Below, piece after piece: positions 3,200 through 38,357 of a stretch of DNA of 64,000 nucleotides. The stretch's first letter is position 1; the number at the start of each line of letters is the position of its first letter. The DNA is from an uncultured Verrucomicrobiae bacterium (GTDB taxonomy: Bacteria; Verrucomicrobiota; Verrucomicrobiia; Limisphaerales; JAFGQR01): assembly GCA_963788655.1 (NCBI GenBank), contig CAWBHS010000062.1, forward strand, positions 1 through 64,000. Reading direction: 5' to 3'. The position numbers and the translations under genes were made by a program. Below the pieces are notes generated by a model that made no database searches, was not told the DNA's origin, and saw nothing but the letters and a program-made list of their open reading frames with translations.

Positions 3200-3628
3200 G
3201 GGAAAAGCCTGGTGGAACGGCCACGATTGTCGATCGTGACACCTTTTTATCACGTTGCCACCATGGCGACTGCGGACTGCTGTTAGCCCACCAATTTTAC
3301 GCCTCGAGGTTTATGGAATCCGAGGGCCCATGCGCGCCATGCGGCATGTGGTAGCCTACATGGTCATCCGGTTTGAGGTTCTGAGCTGCCACTTTTTTTT
3401 GCGCGCCCGGAAGTTTGTGTGCGTTATACCGGCGGTAATACCCCTCGGCACTTACTGCTCATTGGGGGTCCGAAGCGCGAAATTATTCGGGATGTTCTCG
3501 AAGCAGACGCGGACACGGTTCTCACACGGCGAGTTAGCATCCCGACTTTCGGCTGGCATGATCGAACAATCACGCTAGTTTTAAGCCCGTTACACCCGTG
3601 GTTGCCCAACAATGAATCTGAAATCGTC

Positions 3629-5173: not shown

Positions 5174-6106
5174 ATGAATGCCGAACCAATTCCCCAACCG
5201 ATTTGCGGTATCATCCCGCCCATGATCACTCCGTTGCTCGACCGCGACAAACTCGACGTAGCCGGCCTCGAAAAAGTGATCGAGCACCTTCTGGCCGGAG
5301 GCGTGCATGGTCTGTTTATTCTGGGCACCACCGGGGAAGGTCCGAGCCTGAGCCATGCGTTGCGCCAGGAATTGATCGAGCGCACCTGCCAACAGGTCAA
5401 CCGGCGCGTCCCGGTACTGGTGGGCATCACCGACACCGCATTCATCGAATCAGTCACCCTGGCCTACCACGCCGCCGATTGTGGCGCGGACGCCGTCGTG
5501 CTGGCGCCGCCCTATTACATGCCCGAGGGCCAACCGGAATTGCGCGAATACCTGGCTCACCTGTTGCCAGAATTGGGGCTGCCGCTCTTTCTCTACAACA
5601 TGCCCCCGCTCACGAAAGTGCCGTTCGAGATCGAAACCGTGCGCTGGGCGATGGACCAACCGCCGATCGTGGGCATCAAAGACAGTTCCGGCGACATGGG
5701 CTATTTCCACCAACTCTGCCAACAGCAACCGCGCCGCCCGGATTGGACCCTGCTCGTCGGACCGGAACACTTGTTGGCGGAAGCCGTCCTGCTCGGCGGA
5801 CACGGCGGCGTCAATGGCGGCGCAAACCTTTATCCGGCCTTGTATGTAAAGTTGTATGACGCCGCCCGCGCCGGGGACTTGCCGCGAGTGCGGGAATTGC
5901 ACGCGCGAGTGCTCAAAGTGTCTGAACGACTCTACCGCGTGGGCAAACATCCTTCCGCTGTCATCAAAGGCATCAAGTGCGCTGCCGCGTGCCTGGGACT
6001 GTGCAACGATTTCATGGCGGAACCATTCCATCGCTTCCGCGAGCCGGAGCGGAACGTAATCGAACAAGCCGTGAAAGATTTGGCAGCGGTGGCGGCAGTG
6101 GACTGA
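5174..6106 (+). CDS. Dihydrodipicolinate synthase / N-acetylneuraminate lyase family protein
   Basis: GIIPPMITP, GLFILGTTGEG, LFLYNMP, GIKDSSGD (Schiff-base Lys). Confidence 0.9.
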   Translation: MNAEPIPQPICGIIPPMITPLLDRDKLDVAGLEKVIEHLLAGGVHGLFILGTTGEGPSLSHALRQELIERTCQQVNRRVPVLVGITDTAFIESVTLAYHAADCGADAVVLAPPYYMPEGQPELREYLAHLLPELGLPLFLYNMPPLTKVPFEIETVRWAMDQPPIVGIKDSSGDMGYFHQLCQQQPRRPDWTLLVGPEHLLAEAVLLGGHGGVNGGANLYPALYVKLYDAARAGDLPRVRELHARVLKVSERLYRVGKHPSAVIKGIKCAAACLGLCNDFMAEPFHRFREPERNVIEQAVKDLAAVAAVD

Positions 6107-12084: not shown

Positions 12085-12315
12085 TCGCCTCCTGGACGCG
12101 GCCGATTCGAAGCCGCAACCCAGTCGCTCGATCACTATCACTCGGGAGTTCAGGTTAATCTGGTTGAACGCGCGTTGGTATTCATGGCAGAATTCGCGGC
12201 ACTCATGCAGAGTGCGCCAACATCCTGTGATCAAGGGAACCACAATTTGAGATTCCAGCGCGCGGGTAACCAGTTCCGCTCCAACTCGGAACTCCGGAGC
12301 CAAATGCAAAACCCC

Positions 12316-12388
12316 GTAGCAGCCGACGTAAGGAGGCTCTGATCTTTTTCGCCAGAAACAGAATGAGCCTCCTTACGTCGGCTGCCAC
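12316..12388. repeat. GTAG-type REP doublet (inverted pair)
   Basis: GTAGCAGCCGACGTAAGGAGGCTC ... GAGCCTCCTTACGTCGGCTGCCAC; relatives at 14244-14319 and 21171-21243. Confidence 0.8.
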
Positions 12389-12467
12389 GGGGTTCATAGG
12401 GGACGGTTCGTGCCGGACGTTGTCCCGTTGGGGCAAACATCCGTCGCACCCGGCGTCTTTCTGAAAA

Positions 12468-14585: not shown

Positions 14586-14694
14586 GCCGAACGACGATGA
14601 CCGACCGCCCCGAATGACGACCCGGCTGCCAAGCGAAACGCCAGACGCAAACCGCCAAGCGGGTGGATGGTTCGGTCGATCGCTTTTGTTAGGC
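14586..14694 (-). other. attC-like site (array 1)
   Basis: Minus strand: R'' GCCTAAC overlapping the cassette stop codon, inner arms GATCGACCG / CGGTCGGTC, R' GTTCGGC. Confidence 0.75.
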
Positions 14695-15105
14695 CATTGT
14701 TTCATCGTCTGTCTTTGGGATTTGTGGGGTTGTTGCTCTCGAACCGTGAAAATATGCGGTGGCCTTCGGTCGAAAAAGAAGGAAGATCGCGGTTCCAAAT
14801 ACCAAGCTGCGTAATATGAATCTGAACGGCGAGTAGTACATGAGATCGCCGATGACGTTGTATCCAAACCAAACGACGAGAAGCCAACGCGCCCAATGGA
14901 ATCCACAAACCATCAACACGCCGCAGATCACTCCGAGAATCGGTCCGATATAGAGTAGCGAAAACCGAATCGGATGCTGCGCCTTGAACTCGGCTACGCT
15001 TGGTTCGTTACCAAAAGTTGGCAGCAAGCTCGTGAGGAGCGCGATGCTTCCCAGCACGATCAATATCCAACTGATGACAGTAACTGAGCGAGGGCGTTTA
15101 TTCAT
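14689..15105 (-). CDS. Integron gene cassette, hypothetical membrane protein
   Basis: GTTAGGC lies 13 nt upstream of the ATG and the complementary GCCTAAC overlaps the stop; about four hydrophobic segments; lower GC than flanks. Confidence 0.78.
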   Translation of the reverse strand: MNKRPRSVTVISWILIVLGSIALLTSLLPTFGNEPSVAEFKAQHPIRFSLLYIGPILGVICGVLMVCGFHWARWLLVVWFGYNVIGDLMYYSPFRFILRSLVFGTAIFLLFRPKATAYFHGSRATTPQIPKTDDETMA

Positions 15106-15118
15106 AGCGTGTAAATTG

Positions 15119-15240
15119 GCCTAACAAGCTCAGCGACCGCCGCCGGAAACGCCCGGTCGGCTGCAACAATCGCTGATAAATTATCCGAACCGTCCGACTG
15201 CCCAGCGGGGCGGCGGTTCGCTGCAGCGCCCTGGTTGAAC
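15119..15240 (-). other. attC-like site (array 1)
   Basis: Minus strand: GTTCAAC-CAGGGCGCTGCAGCGAACCGCCGCC ... GGCGGCGGTCGCTGAGCTT-GTTAGGC; 122 bp with an extra base in the first arm. Confidence 0.82.
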
Positions 15241-15439
15241 GAAGCCGCTGCGCGGCGGGAAGAAGGGACGGCGGTCGGCTGGCGCCAACCGCGGGACTAG
15301 GTCCATTGCCTCCACGCTTCGATTTGTGTCCACATTCCCAGGGACCTTCGTTACCGTCGAAGGCGCCGGCCGGCCTCCAGGCGAAGCCGACGAGCCAACG
15401 TTATCCGTCAACTAACACTCGTATGCCTGGGCAACTCGT

Positions 15440-15739
15440 TCATGACTCCTGTGCGGGTCTCCGCAGGACAGCAACCCCGTACAAACCAAAAATGCCACTA
15501 AATGAAGTGGACACCAATTCCCATCCCTCGGCGTCAAGTTCTTCGAGCGCTGTTTCCAGCAGCCTGGTCGCCTGCCAGACTCGTCCGATGAAGCGGTCCT
15601 TCTCCGCCTTTCCGACCTGTTTGCCTGGAGTAGCAGGATCCGCCGAGGTAATGACCCAACGTCGGCCAGACCTATCTGCCGTACCGTAAATCAAGGTGAT
15701 GTGCTGCCACTTTGCCATCGGATATTGCTCAGGCCTCAC
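15440..15739 (-). CDS. Small hypothetical protein (DUF4177-like), possible cassette gene
   Basis: LETALEELDAEGWELVS motif; lies between attC and the intI remnant, but no clear attC of its own. Confidence 0.55.
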   Translation of the reverse strand: MRPEQYPMAKWQHITLIYGTADRSGRRWVITSADPATPGKQVGKAEKDRFIGRVWQATRLLETALEELDAEGWELVSTSFSGIFGLYGVAVLRRPAQES

Positions 15740-15969
15740 GTGGGAGTTCAGCGTAAACGCCCTGAAGGCGCCCGTTGGAATTCATGACATGTGTTCTCAT
15801 CATACATTGCCTTTCTCTGCTCCGCGGGGACGGTTATGCTGCAACGATTAGTTCAATTTTTTGAGCCGGCCAATGGCGACAACGACCAAACTAACCCATC
15901 CCGCATCCCATCGCAAGCCCCAAGGATCCCACCAGGAATCCCGCTTCCTACCGCACCTGCCCGCCGCCG

Positions 15970-16312
15970 CCAGCGAGCAAAAACTGGAGGCTTACCTTTC
16001 CCACTTGGCCCGGCAGGGAATTTCAGCCTCAACCCAAAATCAAGCCTTCTCCGCATTGGTGTTCTTTTATCAGCAAGTACCGAGATTGTCGCTGAAAATA
16101 ACGACGCCCGGCGCGCCAAAGTGCCGGCGCGCGTCCGGGAGGCACCCACGATTGAAGAAACGCGGACTTTGCTGGCGGCGGTGCCTGACCTGCACGGTTT
16201 GAACCGCGGGATCAATCAGTGCGCCATCCAACAGGTGATGGGTCACAAGTCGCAGCAGACGACCATGGGCTATTTCCATGCCGAGAATCTGAGCGTGCAC
16301 TGTCCGCTGGAC
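15970..16312 (+). pseudogene. intI: Integron-integrase-like remnant with frameshift and internal deletion
   Basis: KLEAYLSHLARQGISASTQNQAFSALVFFYQQV (IntI N-terminal motif), RRAKVPARV, then directly IQQVMGHKSQQTTMGYFH..SVHCPLD (compare GVxSPLD). Box I Arg and HxxR are missing. Confidence 0.75.
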
Positions 16313-16520
16313 TTTGGAACGGTTAGCGCGGGCGAACGGCTGGCAACACGGGCAAAAACTTGGACGGATAGAACGGCAATTAAACGCCACATCCTTTTTG
16401 CTCCGAATCCGTTGCGACCGGAGCTAGTATGGAGTGAGGTCAAGTTTTCGTAAGGCCCGCAGCGTGACTGAGGTGCGACTTCCAGTTGCAGTTTTGCCCT
16501 TGCTCGGTTACTACACACCC

Positions 16521-21300: not shown

Positions 21301-23292
21301 CTAATCGGCCTTCGTCAATTTCACGAAGCGCAGGTTGATGGCCTTCCAGGTCCGGGAATCTTTGGAGCGCATTGTGACGATCAGTTCGCCGGGTTGCTTG
21401 ATTTCCACAGGACCAAGCTGCACCACTTGGAATTTGTCCCAGGAACCTGTTTGCGCGGCTTTGCCCGGGAGCTGTTGTCCGCCGATTTCCACCACAAATT
21501 CTGACGCGGGCTGAACCGCCGCGCAACTGGCACTGACGTTGAACGTACCGGCTTGGGGAATTTGCACCTTCCACGAAACCCATTCGTCGGCACGGTCCCA
21601 GAAACCGATGTTCGGCTGGCCACCTTGCGCCTCCTGTTTGATCTGGTCGCCGTGCAATTCAGCGTCGGCCGCGAGGAGGTTGAGATTGCCCCGCGCATCC
21701 GGGCGAACGGGCTCGATGATTTGCACGATCGGCACTGCCTGGAGGTCGGTGCCGGTGATTCTCAACGCGGCAGTGTACTCCGACACTTTTTGGTCGGGTA
21801 GCGTTACGACCAAGCCATTGGTGCTTTGGGCGAACGCGAGCTTGCCCTCGTGGCCGAGGAGTTCCACCTGTTGAATCTGGTTGATGCTTTCGCCGTCGGG
21901 CCGGGCGAGGGACCGGACAGTCAGTTGGCCGTCCTCGGGCCAGCCGAGCGCAATGGCGTAAAGGGTCTTGCCTTTGGTCGTGAACCGAATGTCTTTGGCG
22001 GTGTAGGCATAGTTCTCATTGAAATGGCCGCCCTTTGTCTTGACCGCCGCCTTCGCCATAAACCTGCCAGGGACGCGTGCCGTAAATCGCCTCGCCATGA
22101 ATGGCAATCCAATCGGCCATCTGCTCCAGATCCTGCTCGACTTCGGGATCGATTGAACCGTCGGGACGCTGGACAATGTTCAGCAGGAGATTGCCGTTCT
22201 TGCTGACGATATCGACGAGCATGTGGATGGTCCAACTGACTGGACGGAACTTCCAGTTCTGGTTGTAAAACCAGTCGCCGATGGACGTGTCAGTCTGCCA
22301 CGGATCCGGATTGATCTTCGGCATCACCCCGCGTTCGAGATCCTCGACCCAGCGACCTTCGGATTTCTGTTTGCACGTGTACACCACCTCCAGTTGCCCG
22401 CCGTGACGGGCGGCGTTGGCGTTGTAAAGATGGGCAATCAGGCTCCGCCCCACCTCGTTGCCGAAGGGCACGCCGCCGTCGGTGTAGAGCAGGTCGGGAT
22501 GGTAGCATGTCCACGAGTTCCTTGATTTCGTTGAACCACTGTTGTTGCCAGCGCGGGTTTTTGCTGTACCAACCGGTGTCGCCGGGTTCGGCGGGAAAGT
22601 GGTACAGATCCCAATACTTCGGATTCGCGCCGTCGTACGGCACGCCGGCCAGCGGACCAGTCTTGTCCGAACCATGACTGGGTTGGAACCAGGTGAAGCT
22701 GGCGCCCAAATGCTCCGAGACGCCGAAGCGCAGACCGTATTTTTGCGCCGCTTTCTGCCAGTCACCGACCACGTCGCGTTTCGGGCCCATGTTGACGGCG
22801 TTCCACTTGTGCAACTTCGAATTCCAGAGGAAGAAATTGTCGTGGTGCGAGCCCATGCTGACGAAGTATTTGGCGCCGGCACGTTTGTAGAGTCGCCATC
22901 AAACGGTCGGGATCCCATTTCTCCGCCTTCCACAACGGAATGATATCCTTGTAGCCATTCGTGGACGGGTGGCCGTAGCGTTCCAGGTGATCCTGGTATT
23001 GCCGGTTTCCCTGAACGTAAATGTGCTTGGCATACCAATCGCCTTCCATCGGCACCGCCTGCGGTCCCCAATGCGCCCAGATGCCAAACTTGGCGTCGCG
23101 GAACCAATCCGGGCACTGGTAGTTCTTCAACGATTCCATTGTCGGCTGGAACGGCCCGGCGGCAACGGGCAGATCGAGTTTGGCCGCAGGCTTGGCGTCC
23201 TGGGCCGGTGCGGACGCGGGTAACAACCAAGCGCCGACGGCGGACAGGGATAACACGGTGAGAATGGTTCGAATCTTCAAAGTCGTTTTCAT
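21301..23292 (-). CDS. Alpha-L-fucosidase (GH29) with C-terminal carbohydrate-binding-like module, several frameshifts
   Basis: PDWFRDAKFGIWAHWGPQAVP, HHDNFFLWNS, PDLLYTDG, VSKNGNLLLNI, GEAIYGTRPW. Confidence 0.9.
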
Positions 23293-23823
23293 AGTTATGT
23301 CTCGCCCCGGTTCAATGCGGTAGCGTTGTTTGCTGGACACGGGCAAGAGACTACGGAAACGGGAGAAAACTTTCGATGCCAAATTTCTCCAAAACAGCGG
23401 ACAACGATCGACAGCGGGGGGCTGCACACATTGGAAGGAAGTCGGCTAAGCCGCGGCAGCGTTTGCGTCCGGCTGGAAAGTCTTCAAGGGCGACAATGCC
23501 GAATGGTTCCTCCACAAAACCAACGGCGCCCGCAAAGCCTATCGCCGCCTCTGGCGCAAGACCCACGTCGATCCCCTCATCGGCCAACGCCGCCAGCGCC
23601 GTCGTATGGCCAGCCACCTGGCCCGCACCCTGCCCCTTTACCAATGGTCCAACCCTGCCACGCGCGACCTGATGACCAACTTCACCACCGGCCTGATCGG
23701 CGAAAGGACCATCCCCAGCGCCGTCGCCCGCGACAACCACTACAACGACTGCGAACTCATGCTTGCCGTCGCCGCCGTCATCTGCGGCCTCATCGCCGAC
23801 ACCCGCACCAATGCTTGACTGGT

Positions 23824-23907
23824 GGAACGATCAGGGTGAGCGACCGCCGCCGACAGTAAGGGTGAAAAGCACAAGGCGCTCTCGAATCGCGGCCCAGCAT
23901 TGAACGA
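23824..23907 (-). other. Degenerate half attC-like site (distal end of array 2)
   Basis: GGTGAGCGACCGCCGCCGAC (23835-23854) is identical to 25686-25705, and GCCCAGC(A/G)TTGAACG follows at nearly the same spacing; the R''-side arm is missing. Confidence 0.6.
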
Positions 23908-24215: not shown

Positions 24216-25235
24216 GCCCAACGATGAGGTCAGCGACGGGAGCCAGCCGTCAATGACGTTCGATTTGTCTCTGCGCTAATCGGCTCTCCCGTTCGCTGCC
24301 GGGTAGGAGCCGGGGTTGCCCCCGGCGCCCCCCACAGACCCGTACGTGAACAATTCGCTCATACGGTTCGTCAGTACCCGCCTTGCCGCGGGCGACCCGA
24401 GCGGTGCCCCGCTCAAGCGCATGACACGTTGCTGCCCGTTGTGCAATCCAAGCGAGTTTCGTTGATCCAGATGTTGAGCTCGATGTCTCGTCTGGCCTTC
24501 CCTCGCCCAGTGGTCATGCCCGGCATTGCCTTCCCGCCGCCTCTCGGCCTGTATCGTGGGTCCCTTGGGCCTCAGTTCCCCACGCCTCCGATCCTGCGGC
24601 CTTACGGCCTCGGAATCCGCGGGTACTATGCGTTGCTACGACTACCTTCGTCCCTCCCGGCGGGTTCGCTTGCGGCTCCCTTCCGGTACCTTGGGTTGAG
24701 ACGTGGTCTTTTGTGTCCCGCCCAGCTCGCGCCAGGTTCGGCTCGTGGGCCGTCCGCCTCCAGCGGCCAACGCCAGGGTGGTGATGGTGCCGGTCACCCT
24801 GCTTCCGGCGGTTCTCCCCAAGGAGACGGGAGGTCCTCCCGAGTTCCCGGATTACCCCTTTAAGCATACGCCCCGATCTCAGATCCCGGATGGGTTCCAG
24901 TCCGCTCGCCTTAACGCGGACAGGACTGCTGCCTTCCAGTGGATGCAACTGTCGGCTTTGGGTCCGGTTGCCCGAACTTATCCCTGGTCCACCACTATAC
25001 ATTTTTCGGGATTCAATTCCGCGGCCTGCGCCCTCGCTTCCCCTCTGCTTCGCACACCACCTCTCGGTGATCGCACTTCGGTTCCGCTATCGACCCGGTG
25101 GCTAGCCTTTGGTCGAGTGGGATTGGTCAGCACCGCTGACGCACCCACTGGGTAATATTGACGAATTTCAAGGGGCGTCACCCCTCTTCCAACGTCCCGT
25201 GCTTGTCTCGGCACAAGCATCCGGTTTGGTTAGGC
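24216..25235 (-). other. attC-like site split by a group II intron (halves 25217-25235 and 24216-24297)
   Basis: Removing the intron gives GCCTAAC-CAAACCGGATGC|AGCGAACGGGAG ... CTCCCGTCGCTGACCTCATC-GTTGGGC (101 bp). Confidence 0.8.
24298..25216 (-). ncRNA. Group II intron, RT ORF almost entirely deleted (919 nt)
   Basis: 5' TTGTGCC; internal GGAACTCGGGAGGACC and CATAGTACC..GGGAAC..GACCC..GGGAAGG motifs; DV GAACCGTATGAGCGAATTGTTCACGTACGGGTC; DVI ...GCAACCCCGGCTCCTACCCGGC with candidate branch A at -7. Confidence 0.87.
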
Positions 25236-25459: not shown

Positions 25460-25690
25460 ATGTCTGGAATCGCGGAAATCCAAAAGGCGGTACTCGCCTT
25501 GCCGGTGGCACAGCGTGTCATGTTAACCGAGTCGTTGTTGGATTCCTTACCTCCGCTCGCGGAGGAGTGTTCGGAGGCCGATAAACTGGCCGAAGCAGAA
25601 CGGCGTGATCACGAGATCGAGAGTGGCGCCGTAAAGCCGCTAACCGAAGCGGAATTTTGGCGGTGCGTCGATGGGGACCGGAAACGGTGA
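25460..25690 (+). CDS. Putative addiction-module antitoxin component (TIGR02574-like)
   Basis: ALPVAQRVMLTESLLDSL..AEAERRDHEIESGAVKPL; no toxin gene follows. Confidence 0.8.
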   Translation: MSGIAEIQKAVLALPVAQRVMLTESLLDSLPPLAEECSEADKLAEAERRDHEIESGAVKPLTEAEFWRCVDGDRKR

Positions 25691-25797
25691 GCGACCGCCG
25701 CCGACTGGGACGGTGGACTCACGAGGCTTTCCCAAACTGCTGCCCAGCGTTGAACGGAGAAGCGGGGCGGCGGTTCATCTCCACCAACTTGTTGAAC
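25683..25797 (-). other. attC-like site (array 2), R' degenerate
   Basis: Minus strand: GTTCAAC-AAGTTGGTGGAGATGAACCGCCGCCCCGC ... CGGCGGCGGTCGCTCACC; same family as 15119-15240. Confidence 0.72.
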
Positions 25798-25892
25798 AAA
25801 GCCGCTGCGCGGCGAAGGTGGTCGGACGCGGTTGAGCTTGGCGGCAAATTATCGGTCAGCGACATGGCTGGAATCTATCATGCTGGCGGGGC

Positions 25893-26903
25893 ATGAAAAC
25901 TAAAAAACATGCCGCGAATGGCAACCCCACCAAAACCAACCTCAACCCCAACCTCCCCGCCATCCGCACGACCGGGCGCGAGTATGTCAACCCGGTCGAT
26001 TACCAGCATCCCTACCCGTGCCTGGCCCGCTTCGCCGACGTGCTGGCCCTGCGCTATGACGCCAATCGCCCCCGGCCCGCCTATTACCGGCAGGTGCGCC
26101 TGATCCACGAGCATTTCGGCGCCGACCCCAGCATGCTCACCGAGGACCAACTGCGCGACTATTTCCTGATGGTCAAGCTCCAGAAGCACTGGCAGCCCAA
26201 GTCCATCCGCCAGGCCCTGGCCGCGGCGCGCCTGTTCTTTGTCGAGCACCTGGCGCATCCCGACTGGCAGGTCTTTGCCCGGATCCGCGCCAAGGATCAT
26301 GACCGCTTGCCCGCGGTGCTCACCCGCCCGCAAGTCCACGATCTGCTGACCTTCATCCGCCTGCGCCGCTATCGCACGCCCATCAAACTCATCTATGTCT
26401 GCGGCTTGCGCTTGAGCGAATGTCTGGGCCTGACGATTCACGCTGTTCACGGCCGGGAAAACAAGTTGCGGATTCGCCGCGGCAAGGGCCAGCGGGATCG
26501 GATGCTGCCGTTGCCCACGTCCCTCTATCAGGAGCTGCGGGCCTATTGGGCGTTCCACCGCCATCCCCTGTTGCTCTTTCCCAATGTCGGCCGCGGGGCG
26601 CACACGCCCCAGGCGCTGGCCGCGCGCATGCACGCCGCCACCGGTCCCATGCCGCCCTCCTCGTTGCCGCGGCTATTGATTCTGGCCCGCAAGCAATTGA
26701 ACATCCCCGCCGCCTCGCTGCATTCCTTCCGCCATAGTTTTGCCACCCACTGGCTCGAGGCGGGCGCCCACCGGCCCACCATTCAACGGTTGCTGGGGCA
26801 CAAGCAGATCACCTCGACGATGATCTACCTGCACTTGACCCACCAGAGCGCCCAGGACGCCTGGCAGCTCATGGCCGCGCTGGGCCGCGGGCTGCCGCGG
26901 TAG
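25893..26903 (+). CDS. Tyrosine recombinase (phage integrase family)
   Basis: LPAVLT, CGLRLSE (R), GKGQRDR (K), HSFRH (HxxR), LLGH..STMIY (H, Y); no IntI-specific insertion evident. Confidence 0.93.
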   Translation: MKTKKHAANGNPTKTNLNPNLPAIRTTGREYVNPVDYQHPYPCLARFADVLALRYDANRPRPAYYRQVRLIHEHFGADPSMLTEDQLRDYFLMVKLQKHWQPKSIRQALAAARLFFVEHLAHPDWQVFARIRAKDHDRLPAVLTRPQVHDLLTFIRLRRYRTPIKLIYVCGLRLSECLGLTIHAVHGRENKLRIRRGKGQRDRMLPLPTSLYQELRAYWAFHRHPLLLFPNVGRGAHTPQALAARMHAATGPMPPSSLPRLLILARKQLNIPAASLHSFRHSFATHWLEAGAHRPTIQRLLGHKQITSTMIYLHLTHQSAQDAWQLMAALGRGLPR

Positions 26904-26928
26904 GTCGGCTACCTCCGCGTCCGCTCGC

Positions 26929-28074
26929 GTGAGCGCCACCGTCATCGGGGCGCGGCGTCGGTTCCTGCCCGCGTTCCTGGAAACCCATCCGCCGCTGGCG
27001 GAGGAACAACGCCGCGCCCTCTGGGCCTTCACCCATTGCCGCACGCCGGCCTTGGGCGGGCAGGCTTTTGCCTGCGCAGACAAAGCCTGCGGCCGCGTTC
27101 ACTTCGCCTGGCATTCCTGCAACCACAAAGCCTGTCCGCAGTGTGGCCGCCAAGCCACCGCCCGAGGGGTCCAGCGCGAATTGGCCCAGCTCGTGCGCGC
27201 TCCCTACTTCCTGGGCACCTGCACGCTCCCGGCCGAACTGCGCGGGCAGTTCTTCGGGCCCCACGCCCGCCAGGCTTACGACCTCTTCTTCCACGCCGTC
27301 TCCGGCGCCTTGCGGGAAAAGTTGGCCGCCGACAAAAACCTGGGCGCCCACCGCAGCGGCTTCACCGCCGTCTTGCATACCTGGACCCAGCGCCTGGAGT
27401 TTCATCCGCACCTCCACTGCCTGGTGCCCGGCGCGGGGCTGGATGCCGGCGGCCACTTCGTCCGCGGCAAGAACGAGGATCGCCTGGTGTTCCTGGGGCA
27501 TTTGAAAGCCGCCTTCCGTCAGCACTGCTACCGGCGCTTCAAGGAAAACAACTGGCCCGTCGATCCGGCCGTCTGGTCCACGGAGTGGAATGTCCAAATC
27601 CAACCGGTCGGCGCGGGGGTTCCCGCCGTGAAATACCTCGGCACCTATGTGGCGCGCACGGCCATCCGCGACGAACGCATCGTGGCGGTCGGGGACCAGA
27701 CGGTGACCTTCCGGTGGAAGGATCGCGATCACGATCGCCTCGCACAGTTGACGTTGCCGGGCATCGAGTTCGTGCGCCGCTACCTGCGGCACGTCCTGCC
27801 GCGAGGCCTGCGCTCGGTCCGCTATTACGGGTTCTGTCATCCCACCGCCAAGGCCCAGCGTCTGCGCGTGCAGTGCCACAGTGGCTTGCCGGTGCAATTG
27901 GGCGATCCCACGGTGGCCCCTTCCTCCCGTTCCACTCCGCCCTGTCCCGGTGGCGGCGGGCCGACGCGCTTCCTCGCGTCGGTTGGCCGATGGGCACGGA
28001 AGCGCGGGCCCCCGCGGCAACCGCCACGCCACCCGATCCCACCGCGGTCGAGCGCCGCTGCCATCGCCGCATGA
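26929..28074 (+). CDS. IS91-family rolling-circle (HUH/Y2) transposase with N-terminal Zn-binding domain
   Basis: HCRTPALGG..HSCNHKACPQC, LHTW..FHPHLHC (HUH), YLGTY (YxxxY), RHVLPRG..VRYYGF. Confidence 0.92.
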   Translation: MSATVIGARRRFLPAFLETHPPLAEEQRRALWAFTHCRTPALGGQAFACADKACGRVHFAWHSCNHKACPQCGRQATARGVQRELAQLVRAPYFLGTCTLPAELRGQFFGPHARQAYDLFFHAVSGALREKLAADKNLGAHRSGFTAVLHTWTQRLEFHPHLHCLVPGAGLDAGGHFVRGKNEDRLVFLGHLKAAFRQHCYRRFKENNWPVDPAVWSTEWNVQIQPVGAGVPAVKYLGTYVARTAIRDERIVAVGDQTVTFRWKDRDHDRLAQLTLPGIEFVRRYLRHVLPRGLRSVRYYGFCHPTAKAQRLRVQCHSGLPVQLGDPTVAPSSRSTPPCPGGGGPTRFLASVGRWARKRGPPRQPPRHPIPPRSSAAAIAA

Positions 28075-28350
28075 ATACCGCGCCTCAAAACAATCCGAGG
28101 TTCCGCGGGCGGGAAGCGCTTGCGGCGCGTGAGCCCCTCGGCGCTCGGAATCGGGGAAACCTCTCCTCCAAGCCACGTTTTCCGGCCTCCACCTCCAGTA
28201 AACCACGCGCACTTTACGTTCGGCCCGCTTCCCATCTCCTTTATGGTTCCCGGGCTCTCCTCAAAAGCGCCGCTCCGACCCATCGCGCTAGTCCTTCGGC
28301 TCAAATACAAGTGCCATAGGCTCTGGCGAACCGCCGCGTCGTTCGGGCTT

Positions 28351-28416
28351 GTTCAACCAGGGGTGTAGTTGCTGGCTCCGCTTCGCTCCGCAGCAATACA
28401 CCCTTTATTGTTCGGC
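28351..28416. other. attC-like site (array 2, proximal)
   Basis: GTTCAAC-CAG-GGGTGTAGTTGCTG ... CAGCAATACACCC-TTTATT-GTTCGGC; 66 bp with one bulged base; top/bottom strand assignment is ambiguous. Confidence 0.75.
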
Positions 28417-28426
28417 AATGAATGCG

Positions 28427-28717
28427 TCATGAAACCCAAAGTCCTTTCTTGTAGATTTCCCAACCCTTCTTTGTGCGCTTCAACCAGAGCGTCTGCCCCT
28501 TTCCTTCCAACCGTCCTGGTGTGACAACGCCAGTGCGAACCTCCACCTTATCTTTCGACTCTCTCTGAATGCTGAGAATCTTCTTGCCGGTCTCCTTCTT
28601 CACGACCGCCTCAATCGCAGATCGCTCCTTCTTCGTGATGGGTGGCTGCATTTCCGGCGGCTCACCCAAACAAACACAGGTGAACCCGAGAAGCAAAATG
28701 ATCGTGAGTACTCGCAT
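28427..28717 (-). CDS. First gene cassette of array 2, small basic secreted protein
   Basis: Signal-peptide-like start; flanked on the minus strand by GTTCGGC (28732-28738) upstream and complementary GCCGAAC (28410-28416) downstream. Confidence 0.75.
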   Translation of the reverse strand: MRVLTIILLLGFTCVCLGEPPEMQPPITKKERSAIEAVVKKETGKKILSIQRESKDKVEVRTGVVTPGRLEGKGQTLWLKRTKKGWEIYKKGLWVS

Positions 28718-28731
28718 CGCGTCAGATTGTT

Positions 28732-28959
28732 GCCGAACAATTATTCAACGAACCATCCGTTCGTATATTGAAACAGCAAAACTCCACGGGTAATCCAATT
28801 CATATCAACAGATTAAGTCAAATGGCAGTTCATGGTCAACACTTGGAATTCCTCCACCGCCTCCCTCGCCCGGCTCAGATCGCTTTCAATTGCCAACGGT
28901 TCGTAGATTGGGGCAGGTAATTTCAGGGCACATCACGTTTATTAAGCGAGGCTTGCGTC
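28732..28959 (-). promoter_or_regulatory. Candidate attI / promoter region
   Basis: GTTCGGC core with no attC palindrome on its upstream side; AT-rich non-coding stretch between the first cassette and the divergent intI remnant. Confidence 0.5.
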
Positions 28960-29190
28960 ATGCAGCGCCTCTCGGTCAATCCCGAAAAGACCTACGTCCA
29001 TTTGGCGCACGGATATGGCCTGTTTTTGCGGCAACCCAAACCGATGGCCGACCAGCCTGAGCCGAAATTGAGTCATTTCTGTCACCCTTGGCCGCGCCAA
29101 GCGCTTCGGCTTTAACCCAGAATCAGGCGTTTGACGCCCTCCTGCTGTTTTGTCGTGACGGCCTCAAAATAGAGTTCGGCGAACTCATGA
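28960..29190 (+). pseudogene. intI: Integron-integrase-like N-terminal remnant (not in ORF track)
   Basis: MQRLSVNPEKTYVH..YGLFL, frameshift, then EIESFLSPLA..SALTQNQAFDALLLFCRDGL; catalytic domain absent. Confidence 0.68.
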
Positions 29191-29598
29191 TTACCGTCGT
29201 CGTCATCTGCCGCCAGAGCACCGACACCCGCTCCAACACTTGACGCATCCCCTTGGCCATTTGCCATCGACCCCCGACATTCCCCCTTCAGTTCAGCCCG
29301 ATAGCGCAGAGTTGCACTCTGCTGGCCGCGACGTCAATCCCCTCTGGTTCCGAAGTTGCCGACGGCTTGCCGAATACAATTCGGCGATACAGCAGATTGA
29401 AAATCTGCGCTACGCAAAAGGCCAGTCCATCCTACCGTCTCATCAGAAACAGCGAACCAGGTTGAAGCACTGACCCCAATGATGTGAACGCCAAGGGAAA
29501 CAAAGCGGGGGGATCATGATGGATGCGAGAGCAGGCAATCCGGACTGGTCCCGCGTGACAGGTCATAAGAAATCAAGCAGACTTCGAGTCAGACCGAC

Positions 29599-30994
29599 AT
29601 GAACACGAAAGATTTAATCCAGTTGGGTGTACCACCGGGAGAACCGACGCGGCGGGGGATCGATTTCATTGCCCGCTATGTCCTCAAGGGACTCGACCGG
29701 GCAAAGCTGGCTGAAGAGGTCGAAGCCGTGGTGCAGCATCCCGAAGCGTTTGTTGAGGACGACCTGCGCGGTGAATTCGCAAAGGCGTTGCTCCGTGGCG
29801 AGCGCACGATCCCGCAGTCGCCGGCCGCCTGGCGGCAATGGGGCGAAGGACTGGATCCCGAAGCCATCAACCAGATGGGCCGCGCGTGCCAATTGCCCGT
29901 GGCCGTAGCGGGCGCGTTGATGCCCGACGCGCACGTGGGTTATGGTCTGCCGATTGGCGGCGTGCTCGCGACGGACCATGCGGTGATTCCGTATGCGGTG
30001 GGAGTCGATATTGCGTGTCGCATGAAGCTCACGGTGCTGGACCTGCCGCTGCGCGATCTGGAACGTCACCGCGAGCGACTCATCAAAGCCATTGAAACTG
30101 AAACGCGCTTTGGAATCGGGGCCATGTTCAAGCAACGCCGCGAACACGAAGTGCTGGAGGCGGATTGGTCGGTAAGCCCGGTGACCAGGCAGCACAAGGA
30201 TCGGGCTTGGGCGCAACTTGGCACCAGCGGCAGCGGCAATCACTTCGTCGAGTTTGGCGTGTTCACCAACGAGCATCCCATCGAAGGATTGCCCGCCGGT
30301 GAATACGTGGCGTTGTTGAGCCACAGCGGCAGCCGGGGCACGGGGGCGGCGGTGTGCAATCACTACAGCAAGCTGGCCATGGCGCAACACCTCGATCTGG
30401 CCCGGGAGCACAAGCACCTGGCGTGGTTGTCGCTCGATTCGGCGGATGGTCAGGAATACTGGGCGGCGATGGAATTGATGGGGCGTTACGCCGCGGCGAA
30501 CCATTCGCTCATCCACCGGCACCTGGCCCAACACCTTCGGCTTGGACGTGCTGCTGGACGTGGAAAACCACCACAACTTCGCGTGGAAAGAACGGCACGT
30601 CATTGATGGCGTCGAGCGCGACGTGGTGGTGCATCGCAAGGGCGCCACACCGGCAGGCGCGGGGGTGCTTGGCATCATTCCCGGCTCGATGGCATCACCG
30701 GGATTTCTTGTTCGCGGCAAAGGCGACCCGGCTTCGTTGAAATCGGCGTCGCACGGGGCGGGTCGCGTGATGAGCCGCACGAAGGCCATGGCGACGTTCG
30801 CTTGGGACAAGGTGAACCGGTTGTTGAAGGAGCGGGGTGTGAAACTCATCTCGGCGGGGCTCGACGAAGTGCCGGGAGTGTATAAGGACATTCACCAGGT
30901 CATGGCCGCGCAAGCCGACCTGGTGGAGGTGCTCGGCCGGTTTGATCCGAAGTTGGTCAAGATGGCGTCCCACGGCGAAAGACCGGAAGACTGA
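29599..30994 (+). CDS. rtcB: RtcB family RNA ligase, frameshift near 30540
   Basis: MPDAHVGYGLPIGGV, VGVDIAC, LGTSGSGNHFVE, HSGSRG, NHHNFA, HRKGATPA, IPGSM, SHGAGR, DEVP..YKDI. Confidence 0.93.
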
Positions 30995-37930: not shown

Positions 37931-38357
37931 CGTTCGGCAACAAGTAACGTGCTGTCGGCGTCCCGCCGGCAGAAACGAATGGCGAAGGGCTGTCCAGAAC
38001 CGCAAATATTTTGGATGGCTCAATTAACCGCAAAGTCACGAAGAGCGCATAGAATCTCATCAGCATCCTTTGCGCTCTTCGTGTCTTTGTGGTTAATCAG
38101 GCCATCCCCCGCCATCATCACATTCGAAGTCAATACTCGCCTCACATGGGTTGCGACTCCCCGCACCGGGCACTTGGTAATTGAGTAAAAGTAAGAGCAG
38201 GAGCAAGAGCAGGAATTGAGTTGGCGCTTGTTTGCTTGTTCGACATCAGCGTCAACCCACTTCCGCACGCCCCGTTCCCAACTGCCGGCAGAACGCTGGG
38301 CCGCACGCTGAGGTCTTTTTCCTTTTCTGAACGCACCGTTTCCTTCTTAACTGGCGC

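Follow-up and report, generated by a model that had tools for sequence, protein, structure and literature searches.

A recombinase-bearing IS91-family element at attC sites of integron cassette arrays

Relatives of IS91 with an upstream integrase are catalogued, and two kinds of mobile elements are known to home to the attC sites of integrons, the IS1111-attC insertion sequences and the group IIC-attC introns. For the former, homing of insertion sequences to attC is mentioned in a passage of PMC9229058; the latter are located antisense to the cassettes, between the gene of a cassette and its attC (passage in PMC3001079). Members of the IS91 family are inserted without target duplication; the subterminal palindrome of oriIS abuts a tetranucleotide of the type 5'-GTTC/CTTG with T in second position, and at terIS a palindrome lies beside a GTTC-type cleavage site (passages in PMC13181058). 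ISShvi3 and "IS91-like" elements in Shewanella integrons are the subject of a one-sentence remark in PMC9229058. We investigated a stretch of 64,000 nucleotides (in the following, the window) from an uncultured Verrucomicrobiae bacterium (GCA_963788655.1, contig CAWBHS010000062.1, positions 1 to 64,000), in which a gene for an IntI/Xer-like tyrosine recombinase lies upstream of a gene for a HUH-Y2 transposase. From the comparison with related loci, this element is probably an intact member of an IS91-family subgroup with this gene pair, which inserts site- and orientation-specifically into attC.

Position and orientation of the element at attC sites

In one scan, with one genome per species, 47 related loci were found, mostly on contigs of Verrucomicrobiota metagenome-assembled genomes (MAGs) and a few in other phyla. 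Nucleotide homology with these loci starts at 25788-25791 of the window and ends at 28412-28417. By comparison with the relatives the limits of the mobile unit were set at 25791-28409 (2,619 bp), with the following parts:

25791-25797, + strand: terIS-type left terminus GTTGAAC, conserved where homology starts in the related loci
25801-25813, + strand: subterminal palindrome of the left end, GCCGC-TGC-GCGGC, kept in all left ends
25893-26903, + strand: tyrosine recombinase, IntI/Xer-like, 336 aa (Pfam Phage_integrase 5.5e-25, Phage_int_SAM_4 4.7e-07)
26929-28074, + strand: IS91-family HUH-Y2 transposase, 381 aa (Y2_Tnp 1.3e-41, Zn_Tnp_IS91 6.6e-18)
28344-28409, + strand: oriIS-type right end (GGGCTT, foot GTTCAAC, CAGG, hairpin, spacer CTTTATT)
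28351-28357, + strand: foot GTTCAAC of the right end
28362-28402, + strand: hairpin of the right end; its 5' arm has one bulged base, and its loop is variable
28403-28409, + strand: spacer CTTTATT of the right end

An earlier description made from the letters of the window alone (the sequence-only reading) had assumed a 2.57-kb unit at 25791-28357. The GTTGAAC and GTTCAAC boxes which it took as ends are present at 25791-25797 and 28351-28357, each terminating an imperfect palindrome; the right palindrome, 28351-28416, is a bulged hairpin. The relatives place the unit at 25791-28409, with the right hairpin included and the left attC excluded. Both palindromes had been called attC-like; this was confirmed for the left one, a resident attC, but not for the right one, which is the element's own oriIS-type hairpin.

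The core boxes of attC sites bear the usual names (R'', L'', L' and R') and consensus sequences (RYYYAAC and GTTRRRY). In nearly all loci the DNA left of GTTGAAC forms an imperfect palindrome starting with a RYYYAAC box. A hand-made scan which combined the pattern RYYYAAC...GTTRRRY with folding gave either nothing or results of far too low specificity. From 19 aligned left flanks a covariance model (R1) was built, with 20 pairs, 15 of them compensatory, and two bulges on the 3' arm. In the loci it detected 98 sites, of which 96 share the strand of the element genes, with arrays of about 20 in locus L015 and about 14 in locus L046. As the training flanks contain GTTGAAC, the R1 scores of left flanks and of the element hairpin are partly circular. 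Hence, a second model (R2) was built from 31 array attCs away from elements. Both models were made for the present analysis and are distinct from the attC model of IntegronFinder. Textbook attCs were recognized by R2, with 43.4 bits for aadA1 of R100, 43.2 bits for the interrupted aadA1 of plasmid RCS41_p (L049) and 31.8 bits for cmlA1 of the same locus. In 292,077 bases R2 gave 99 matches (about 1 per 3 kb), every one on the strand of the element genes.

Altogether 37 distinct left ends were available, 34 from the loci and the window plus those of L048, L049 and L053; L012 is without upstream sequence, so 36 could be evaluated. Thirty of these terminate inside an R2 match, including the window sites 25791 and 15234, and two more abut another copy (tandem junctions in L035). 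The enrichment of attC in the flanks of homologues, which the sequence-only reading had named beforehand as a test, was thus observed. The target of the window copy comprises the following parts (vertical bars mark junctions):

25673-25797, + strand: left attC including its terminal box; R1 35.8 bits (E 4.9e-07, outside the training set), R2 24.6 bits
25673-25790, + strand, which is the attC bottom strand: remainder of the split resident attC (spacer, L'', loop, L', R')
28410-28416, + strand: GTTCGGC, complement of the displaced R'' GCCGAAC; target DNA, outside the element
28427-28738, minus strand: cassette with the split attC, starting G|TTCGGC at 28738, with ATG at 28717 and an open reading frame (ORF) of 96 aa

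The match at 25673-25797 is to covariance models of attC with paired core boxes, an L-box stem and bulged bases; the distal box of this site is degenerate (GGGGACC compared with RYYYAAC). The left GTTGAAC, which reads GTTCAAC on the cassette-sense strand, occupies the place of the R'' box of this attC.

For 36 of 43 intervals between consecutive attC matches, the longest ORF was located on the strand opposite to the element genes; it often took up 80-97% of the interval length. The R2 matches in L049 and L050 are on the strand opposite to aadA1 and cmlA1, and the window ORF 14689-15105 (minus strand) terminates with TAA inside a GCCTAAC box. Hence, the strand recognized by the models is the attC bottom strand, and the element genes are antisense to the cassettes, in agreement with the sequence-only reading.

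The 7-mer which follows the hairpin corresponds, as reverse complement, to the first box of the next attC on this side, where the adjoining cassette starts. Agreement was found at 35 of 48 variable positions, compared with 28.0 +/- 1.9 in shuffles (reached by 12 of 10,000); this test included the tandem junction of L035, the near-duplicates L033/L036 and a window box picked by eye. A stricter test with nine loci, without those cases, gave 28 of 36 positions, compared with 23.0 +/- 1.6 (reached by 166 of 20,000 shuffles). Exact matches were obtained for the rare boxes GCATAAC, GGCTAAC and GTCTAAC. For the window, GTTCGGC is the reverse complement of GCCGAAC at the cassette start (28732-28738). 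The 96-aa ORF of this cassette, for which no family match was found, has its stop codon 10 nt before R'' GCCGAAC (28416-28410), with the remainder of its attC at 25790-25673. As partner of the 7-mer, the distal box of the left attC was tried as well (40 of 68 positions compared with 36.4 +/- 2.9; reached by 1,434 of 10,000 shuffles) and was rejected as the wrong one, because in arrays that box belongs to the next cassette. As the 7-mer matches the box of the next cassette, it represents the displaced R'', and the palindrome across the element is the rest of the same attC. Thus, the element splits one attC between R'' and the remainder, antisense to the cassettes and without duplication.

An occupied and an empty site were compared on plasmids. 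A search of plasmid proteins with the recombinase gave a pair named "site-specific integrase" and "IS91 family transposase", 32-33% identical, on RCS41_p, an IncC plasmid of E. coli. This element is located antisense between aadA1 and qacEdelta1 in a class 1 integron and has the same kinds of ends as the window element. Its junctions read ...GAACGAATT|GTTGAAC...TTATTT|GTTAGAC...(aadA1 end) or, in a longer reading, ...GGCTTGAACGAATT|GTTGAAC...element...CCTATCCTTATTT|GTTAGACATTATTTGCC. The empty aadA1 site in R100 is uninterrupted (...GAACGAATTGTTAGAC...; longer reading ...GGCTTGAACGAATTGTTAGACATTATTTGCC). This comparison, made on a relative and not on the window copy, revealed a simple insertion between GAATT and GTTAGAC without target duplication. 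The insertion point is between the spacer and the complement of R'' (GTCTAAC, directly past the aadA1 stop codon); since GTT stands at the start of both element and flank, the position of the cut is defined only to within three bases. The full RCS41_p element was present in 1 of 72,556 plasmid records, and the set of complete E. coli genomes gave no copy of it. A Shewanella plasmid matches its right end with 94.9% identity, so that this copy and ISShvi3, known here by description only, are probably of the same lineage. A further copy was detected on a Salinivibrio plasmid within an array of small opposite-strand ORFs. One insertion position is common to the Verrucomicrobiota-type array, the Salinivibrio plasmid array and the class 1 aadA1 attC. 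The 30 of 36 left ends and the occupied and empty aadA1 sites support the proposal of the sequence-only reading that a self-mobile, recombinase-bearing IS91-type element targets attC.

Ends, genes and surroundings of the element

The left-end pattern GTTGAAC-NAA-GCCGC-NNN-GCGGC was equally conserved in L044 and L045, whose transposases show 33-35% identity. Identity to the related loci was about 60-80% through both genes, faded past the transposase gene and rose again at the right end (28344-28416) to 82-97% in 29 distinct right ends. By this difference the right palindrome belongs to the element and is no resident attC. All 29 right ends have the form GGGCTT-GTTCAAC-4 nt-hairpin-T-rich spacer, and next to each of them stands GTT, past which the sequences are unrelated. 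Between hairpin and element end there are 7 nt; in the window copy 45 nt of hairpin sequence follow the foot GTTCAAC. The flank past the element end begins with GTTA, GTTC or GTTG. In the hairpin consensus 10 pairs are predicted, 5 of them with compensatory changes; the total length is 56-107 nt. The G+C content is 0.67-0.68 for the element compared with 0.56-0.61 for the adjoining DNA. GTTCAAC and GTTGAAC occur 19 times in the window, compared with 9.3 +/- 2.8 in shuffles, and 19 was reached by 0 of 100 shuffles.

In L035 element copies follow each other head-to-tail at a distance of 2,562 bp, with the junction ...CCTT|GTTGAAC; the oriIS-terIS junction sequence was seen in these tandem copies only. 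The predicted fold of such a circle or tandem junction is a perfect long hairpin GTTCAAC...GTTGAAC (-27.9 kcal/mol). The overlapping loci L035 and L037 of one chromosome hold three tandem head-to-tail copies, and a fourth is located about 3 kb off at a different attC. Solo right-end hairpins without genes were observed at other attC junctions (L025 3388-3501, L019 737-808, L026 2567-2615). They keep at most about 50 nt of upstream element sequence; abortive or deleted copies are possible explanations, as are small derivatives of a non-autonomous kind.

Both ORFs of the window element are intact. The catalytic residues claimed for both enzymes in the sequence-only reading are present and invariant among homologues: R173, K198, H277, R280, H303 and Y312 of the recombinase in 31 of 31 sequences (window and 30 homologues), and H159, H161, Y236 and Y240 of the transposase (HxH, YxxxY) in 35 of 35 (window and 34 homologues). 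The transposase combines the HUH-Y2 domain with an N-terminal zinc-binding domain, as is typical of the IS91 family, and reached 282.7 bits with the NCBIfam IS91 equivalog NF033538 (cut-off 125). For the recombinase the top NCBIfam model was the integron integrase TIGR02249 with 141.4 bits (cut-off 265), compared with 120.9 bits for XerC and 79 bits for NF011946 (cut-off 435). Its closest solved structure is VchIntIA (IntI4; 2a3v, E 1.4e-25), in two aligned stretches. Between these, the recombinase has 44 residues compared with 71 in IntI4. The family cut-off is not reached and the IntI-specific extra segment between the catalytic patches is missing; by these tests the enzyme is to be classed as IntI/Xer-like and not as IntI. 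Among the related and plasmid loci, 40 ORFs show it intact beside the transposase.

The window copy deviates from columns conserved to at least 90% at 9 of 118 positions in the recombinase and 6 of 88 in the transposase, including W80G and C342G. Mild decay of this copy is possible. Nearby, an alpha-L-fucosidase gene is split over three frames and an RtcB ligase gene over two (21301-23427 and 29599-30994, respectively). Either these genes are pseudogenes or the assembly has indel errors there; this bears on the weight of decay arguments in the window.

The integron which carries the element is dead, as its integrase is a frameshifted stump:

28921-29243, + strand: integron integrase remnant, frameshifted, truncated and divergent from the cassettes (Phage_int_SAM_4 3.3e-04; TIGR02249 19 bits, E 7.4e-04)

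A second dead integron was identified at 15119-16453, with an integrase remnant in two frames (15861-16453, + strand) and attCs at 15119-15240 and 14586-14694. At the R'' position of the former attC a solo left end of the element, GTTGAACGAAGCCGCTGCGCGGCG, is located at 15234-15257; the rest of this copy is gone. Furthermore, the region 24216-25232 contains a group II intron without ORF (Rfam group-II-D1D4-6 at 24874-25126 on the minus strand, 85.7 bits). It is flanked by a GTTAGGC box (about 25221-25227) and by the remainder of an attC at 24216-24310 (R2 29.2 bits). Apparently an attC is split near R'' by this intron as well; the intron occupies the cassette-sense strand, whereas the published group IIC-attC introns are in the bottom strand.

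A direct repeat of about 66 nt with about 80% identity (23751-23819 and 29179-29244) may be the trace of a rearrangement. The final 22 codons of the ORF 23450-23818 (+ strand) resemble the tail fused to the integrase stump (29061-29243), and half an attC (23824-23906) follows the first repeat copy. An antitoxin-like ORF of 76 aa at 25460-25690 (Unstab_antitox 6.1e-09), on the strand opposite to the cassettes, overlaps the attC remainder with its last codons; no toxin partner was recognized for it. A crude fold scan also revealed two long, perfect and very stable hairpins without relation to the attC family, at 12279-12433 (about -90 kcal/mol) and 38022-38098 (about -44 kcal/mol).

Mechanism and alternative explanations

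In the IS91 model, replication proceeds from oriIS to terIS (passages in PMC7923331 and PMC13181058). Following this model, the transposase would nick the cassette-sense strand past ...AAC at the ori junction. This strand, with its 5' end at ori, would be peeled off as far as GTTCAAC at the ter end and would be joined past RYYYAAC of the R'' box in a single-stranded attC. The AAC/GTT trinucleotide would be the counterpart of the target tetranucleotide GTTC/CTTG of the family. Since the terminal GTTCAAC replaces the displaced R'', the target junction ...AAC|spacer is regenerated, and tandem copies can therefore accumulate. The bottom strands of sedentary arrays are carried by the leading-strand template in 25 of 30 cases (passage in PMC5371416). 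In this case it would be the cassette-sense strand that lies exposed on the lagging-strand template, a possible reason why only one orientation is observed. The recombinase might act as a targeting or tethering factor on folded DNA, as a resolvase of tandem products, or as the integrase itself.

Several points weigh against site-specific insertion into attC by an IS91-type mechanism. All support comes from sequence comparison, and most loci are MAG contigs. The single scan of one genome per species was seeded with peptides of the window protein and covers only close relatives. The training sites of R2 were chosen with R1, itself trained on left flanks, so that the independence of R2 is partial. 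Four of the 36 left ends (L013, L030, L048 and L053) are without R2 match. Among these, L048 lies within an array and its left flank is attC-like by eye; the copy on a Photobacterium plasmid (L053) is clearly off attC, with the flanks ...AGTGA|element|GTTGTAA. This insertion still abuts GTTG, which fits a tetranucleotide-guided HUH chemistry. The GTT trinucleotide alone cannot explain the attC specificity. Furthermore, we infer which strand is cut and moved, and the junctions fit a tyrosine-recombinase cut one base earlier equally well. Finally, pairs of recombinase and IS91 transposase on the rhizobial plasmid pNGR234a and on a Cupriavidus plasmid have different ends and no attC nearby. Such pairs without attC (L051, L052) weaken the recombinase as cause of the attC targeting, which it does not explain as such. 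Hence, attC homing is a property of the GTTGAAC/GTTCAAC subgroup and not of all recombinase-bearing IS91 elements.

The pair on pNGR234a (L051, about 3200-3495 and 5577-6000) has the left terminus GGACTAA and the ori-hairpin foot TTAGTCC, which are mutually complementary, and sits between the inverted motifs CACATAAT / ATTATGTG. Hence, this subgroup may home to another kind of palindromic repeat.

The junctions would permit a cut one base before the HUH position also in a cycle of two enzymes like that of the ssDNA phage CTXphi, an explanation which we consider possible but rather unlikely. It follows the known chemistry of CTXphi and of IntI, which cuts AA|C: the HUH enzyme would make single-stranded circles by rolling-circle replication, and the recombinase would, by an AA|C cut, insert the ori hairpin into the cassette-sense strand of attC, both in folded form. 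The conservation of an intact recombinase beside the transposase in 40 ORFs, VchIntIA as its nearest solved relative, the integron integrase as top NCBIfam model and the perfect hairpin of the circle or tandem junction, with attC-like bulge and variable loop, are in favour of such a cycle. On the other hand, the element hairpin is not recognized by R2 (3.8 bits), and the recombinase lacks the extra segment of IntI (44 compared with 71 residues) and stays below the cut-off (141 compared with 265 bits). The insertion site of L053 has no hairpin, and the transposase retains both tyrosines; the two tyrosines of IS91 transposases suffice for both steps. The low R2 score also concerns the suggestion of the sequence-only reading that the element mimics attC. 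The hairpin is attC-like in shape, but with 3.8 bits mimicry is not established.

That the unit is an ordinary gene cassette, moved by IntI, encoding IS91 genes and with the right hairpin as its own attC, is highly improbable. Its start TTGAAC and its terminal palindrome, with a first box (GTTCAAC) that is the complement of GTTGAAC, resemble those of a circularized cassette, and it is found within cassette arrays. The hairpin, however, is oriented opposite to all resident attCs, with an R1 match on the minus strand of 17.1 bits, R1 being biased here, and the same low R2 score. Cassettes join at G|TT of R', the crossover position. The element lacks a 3' attC in array orientation, it adjoins the array where the resident attC has its R'' end and not at G|TT of R', its ends match those of the IS91 family, and L053 is outside any integron. 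The same applies to the cassette from 28357 to 25673 assumed in the sequence-only reading: as the right palindrome is the element's own hairpin, this is not the moving unit.

An ordinary IS91 relative with GTTN as target, for which the attC link would be due to selection, with arrays serving as safe havens, or to common descent of the loci, has very little probability. GTT is the usual kind of target in the family, many loci are from one phylum, and one copy is at a GTTG outside attC. The flanks differ on both sides among the loci, however, which points to independent insertions, and 30 of 36 left ends are at the same nucleotide and in the same orientation of different attCs, compared with about one R2 match per 3 kb. 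The position shared by the Verrucomicrobiota-type array, the Salinivibrio plasmid array and the class 1 aadA1 attC also argues against this explanation. The sequence-only reading had considered that the tetramers at the ends might merely be IS91 targets hit by chance; they are ordinary IS91 tetranucleotides (passages in PMC13181058), but chance does not account for their position.

A more far-reaching extension of site-specific insertion by the IS91-type element is speculative, and we regard it as improbable. The IntI-like recombinase would bind both the ori hairpin and attC and form a single-strand pathway of two enzymes with the HUH transposase. Read-through past ter would stop at the next attC, because every attC offers the same ...AAC| junction, and would carry whole, correctly phased cassettes; the pair might even be related to the ancestor of the integrase/attC system. 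If this holds, cassettes could be transferred between integrons independently of IntI, from environmental chromosomal arrays to mobile class 1 integrons.

Comparison with known systems

Like IS91, IS801, IS1294 and the related ISCR elements, the window element has a HUH-Y2 transposase, no target duplication, an oriIS downstream of the transposase gene and a terIS palindrome; the structures of oriIS and terIS are those of the family. In contrast to the family, it carries the additional gene for an IntI/Xer-like recombinase, its target is almost always one attC position in one orientation, and its terminal GTTGAAC and GTTCAAC double as attC core boxes. The remark on ISShvi3, as far as the passage in PMC9229058 goes, states no rule of position, orientation, ends or spread. 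Beyond this remark, the full-text literature gave no account of IS91-type elements which target attC, with ISfinder, TnPedia and most subscription journals outside the search; passages in PMC8876359, PMC11023631 and PMC7923331 deal with IS91 in general terms only, and the terms looked for are absent from PMC9330008. New is thus the precisely defined attC target of an IS91-family element.

The IS1111-attC elements of the IS110 family differ from the window element by a DEDD transposase, other ends and the lack of a recombinase; no IS110-family DEDD domain was found with Pfam in either protein of the element. An IS110-family transposase gene (DEDD_Tnp_IS110 and Transposase_20) was detected in L001 (929-2305) and L004 (3782-5173), in the attC adjoining the element and on the same strand. 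These genes are likely to belong to an element of the IS1111-attC type, with two kinds of attC-homing insertion sequences at neighbouring sites. A co-mobilized cassette had been considered for the left flank of about 1.2 kb shared by L001 and L004, and was rejected, as the shared DNA encodes this transposase. The group IIC-attC introns are retroelements inserted in the bottom strand, whereas the IS91 model implies the cassette-sense (top) strand for the element.

The IntI/attC system resembles the element in two respects. The recombinase is nearest to IntI by structures and NCBIfam, and in the ori hairpin core-like 7-mers in inverted arrangement occur together with a bulge and a variable loop. 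It differs in the sub-cut-off score of the recombinase, in the hairpin, which is not recognized by R2 and is inverted relative to the array, and in the join at R'' instead of R'.

For annotation it should be considered that the element creates additional attC-like boundaries, which cassette-calling programs may misread. As both integrases of the window are dead, it can be asked whether arrays rearrange or export cassettes without IntI. Furthermore, the element offers a system for the questions how a target of three bases is narrowed to a folded DNA site and what purpose the accessory recombinase serves. In general, beside the IS1111-attC insertion sequences and the group IIC-attC introns, it would be a third, mechanistically distinct kind of attC-homing mobile element, a single-strand rolling-circle HUH transposon with an IntI-like partner, with copies in large Verrucomicrobiota-type arrays, on a plasmid of Vibrionaceae and, in one case, in a class 1 integron of clinical origin.

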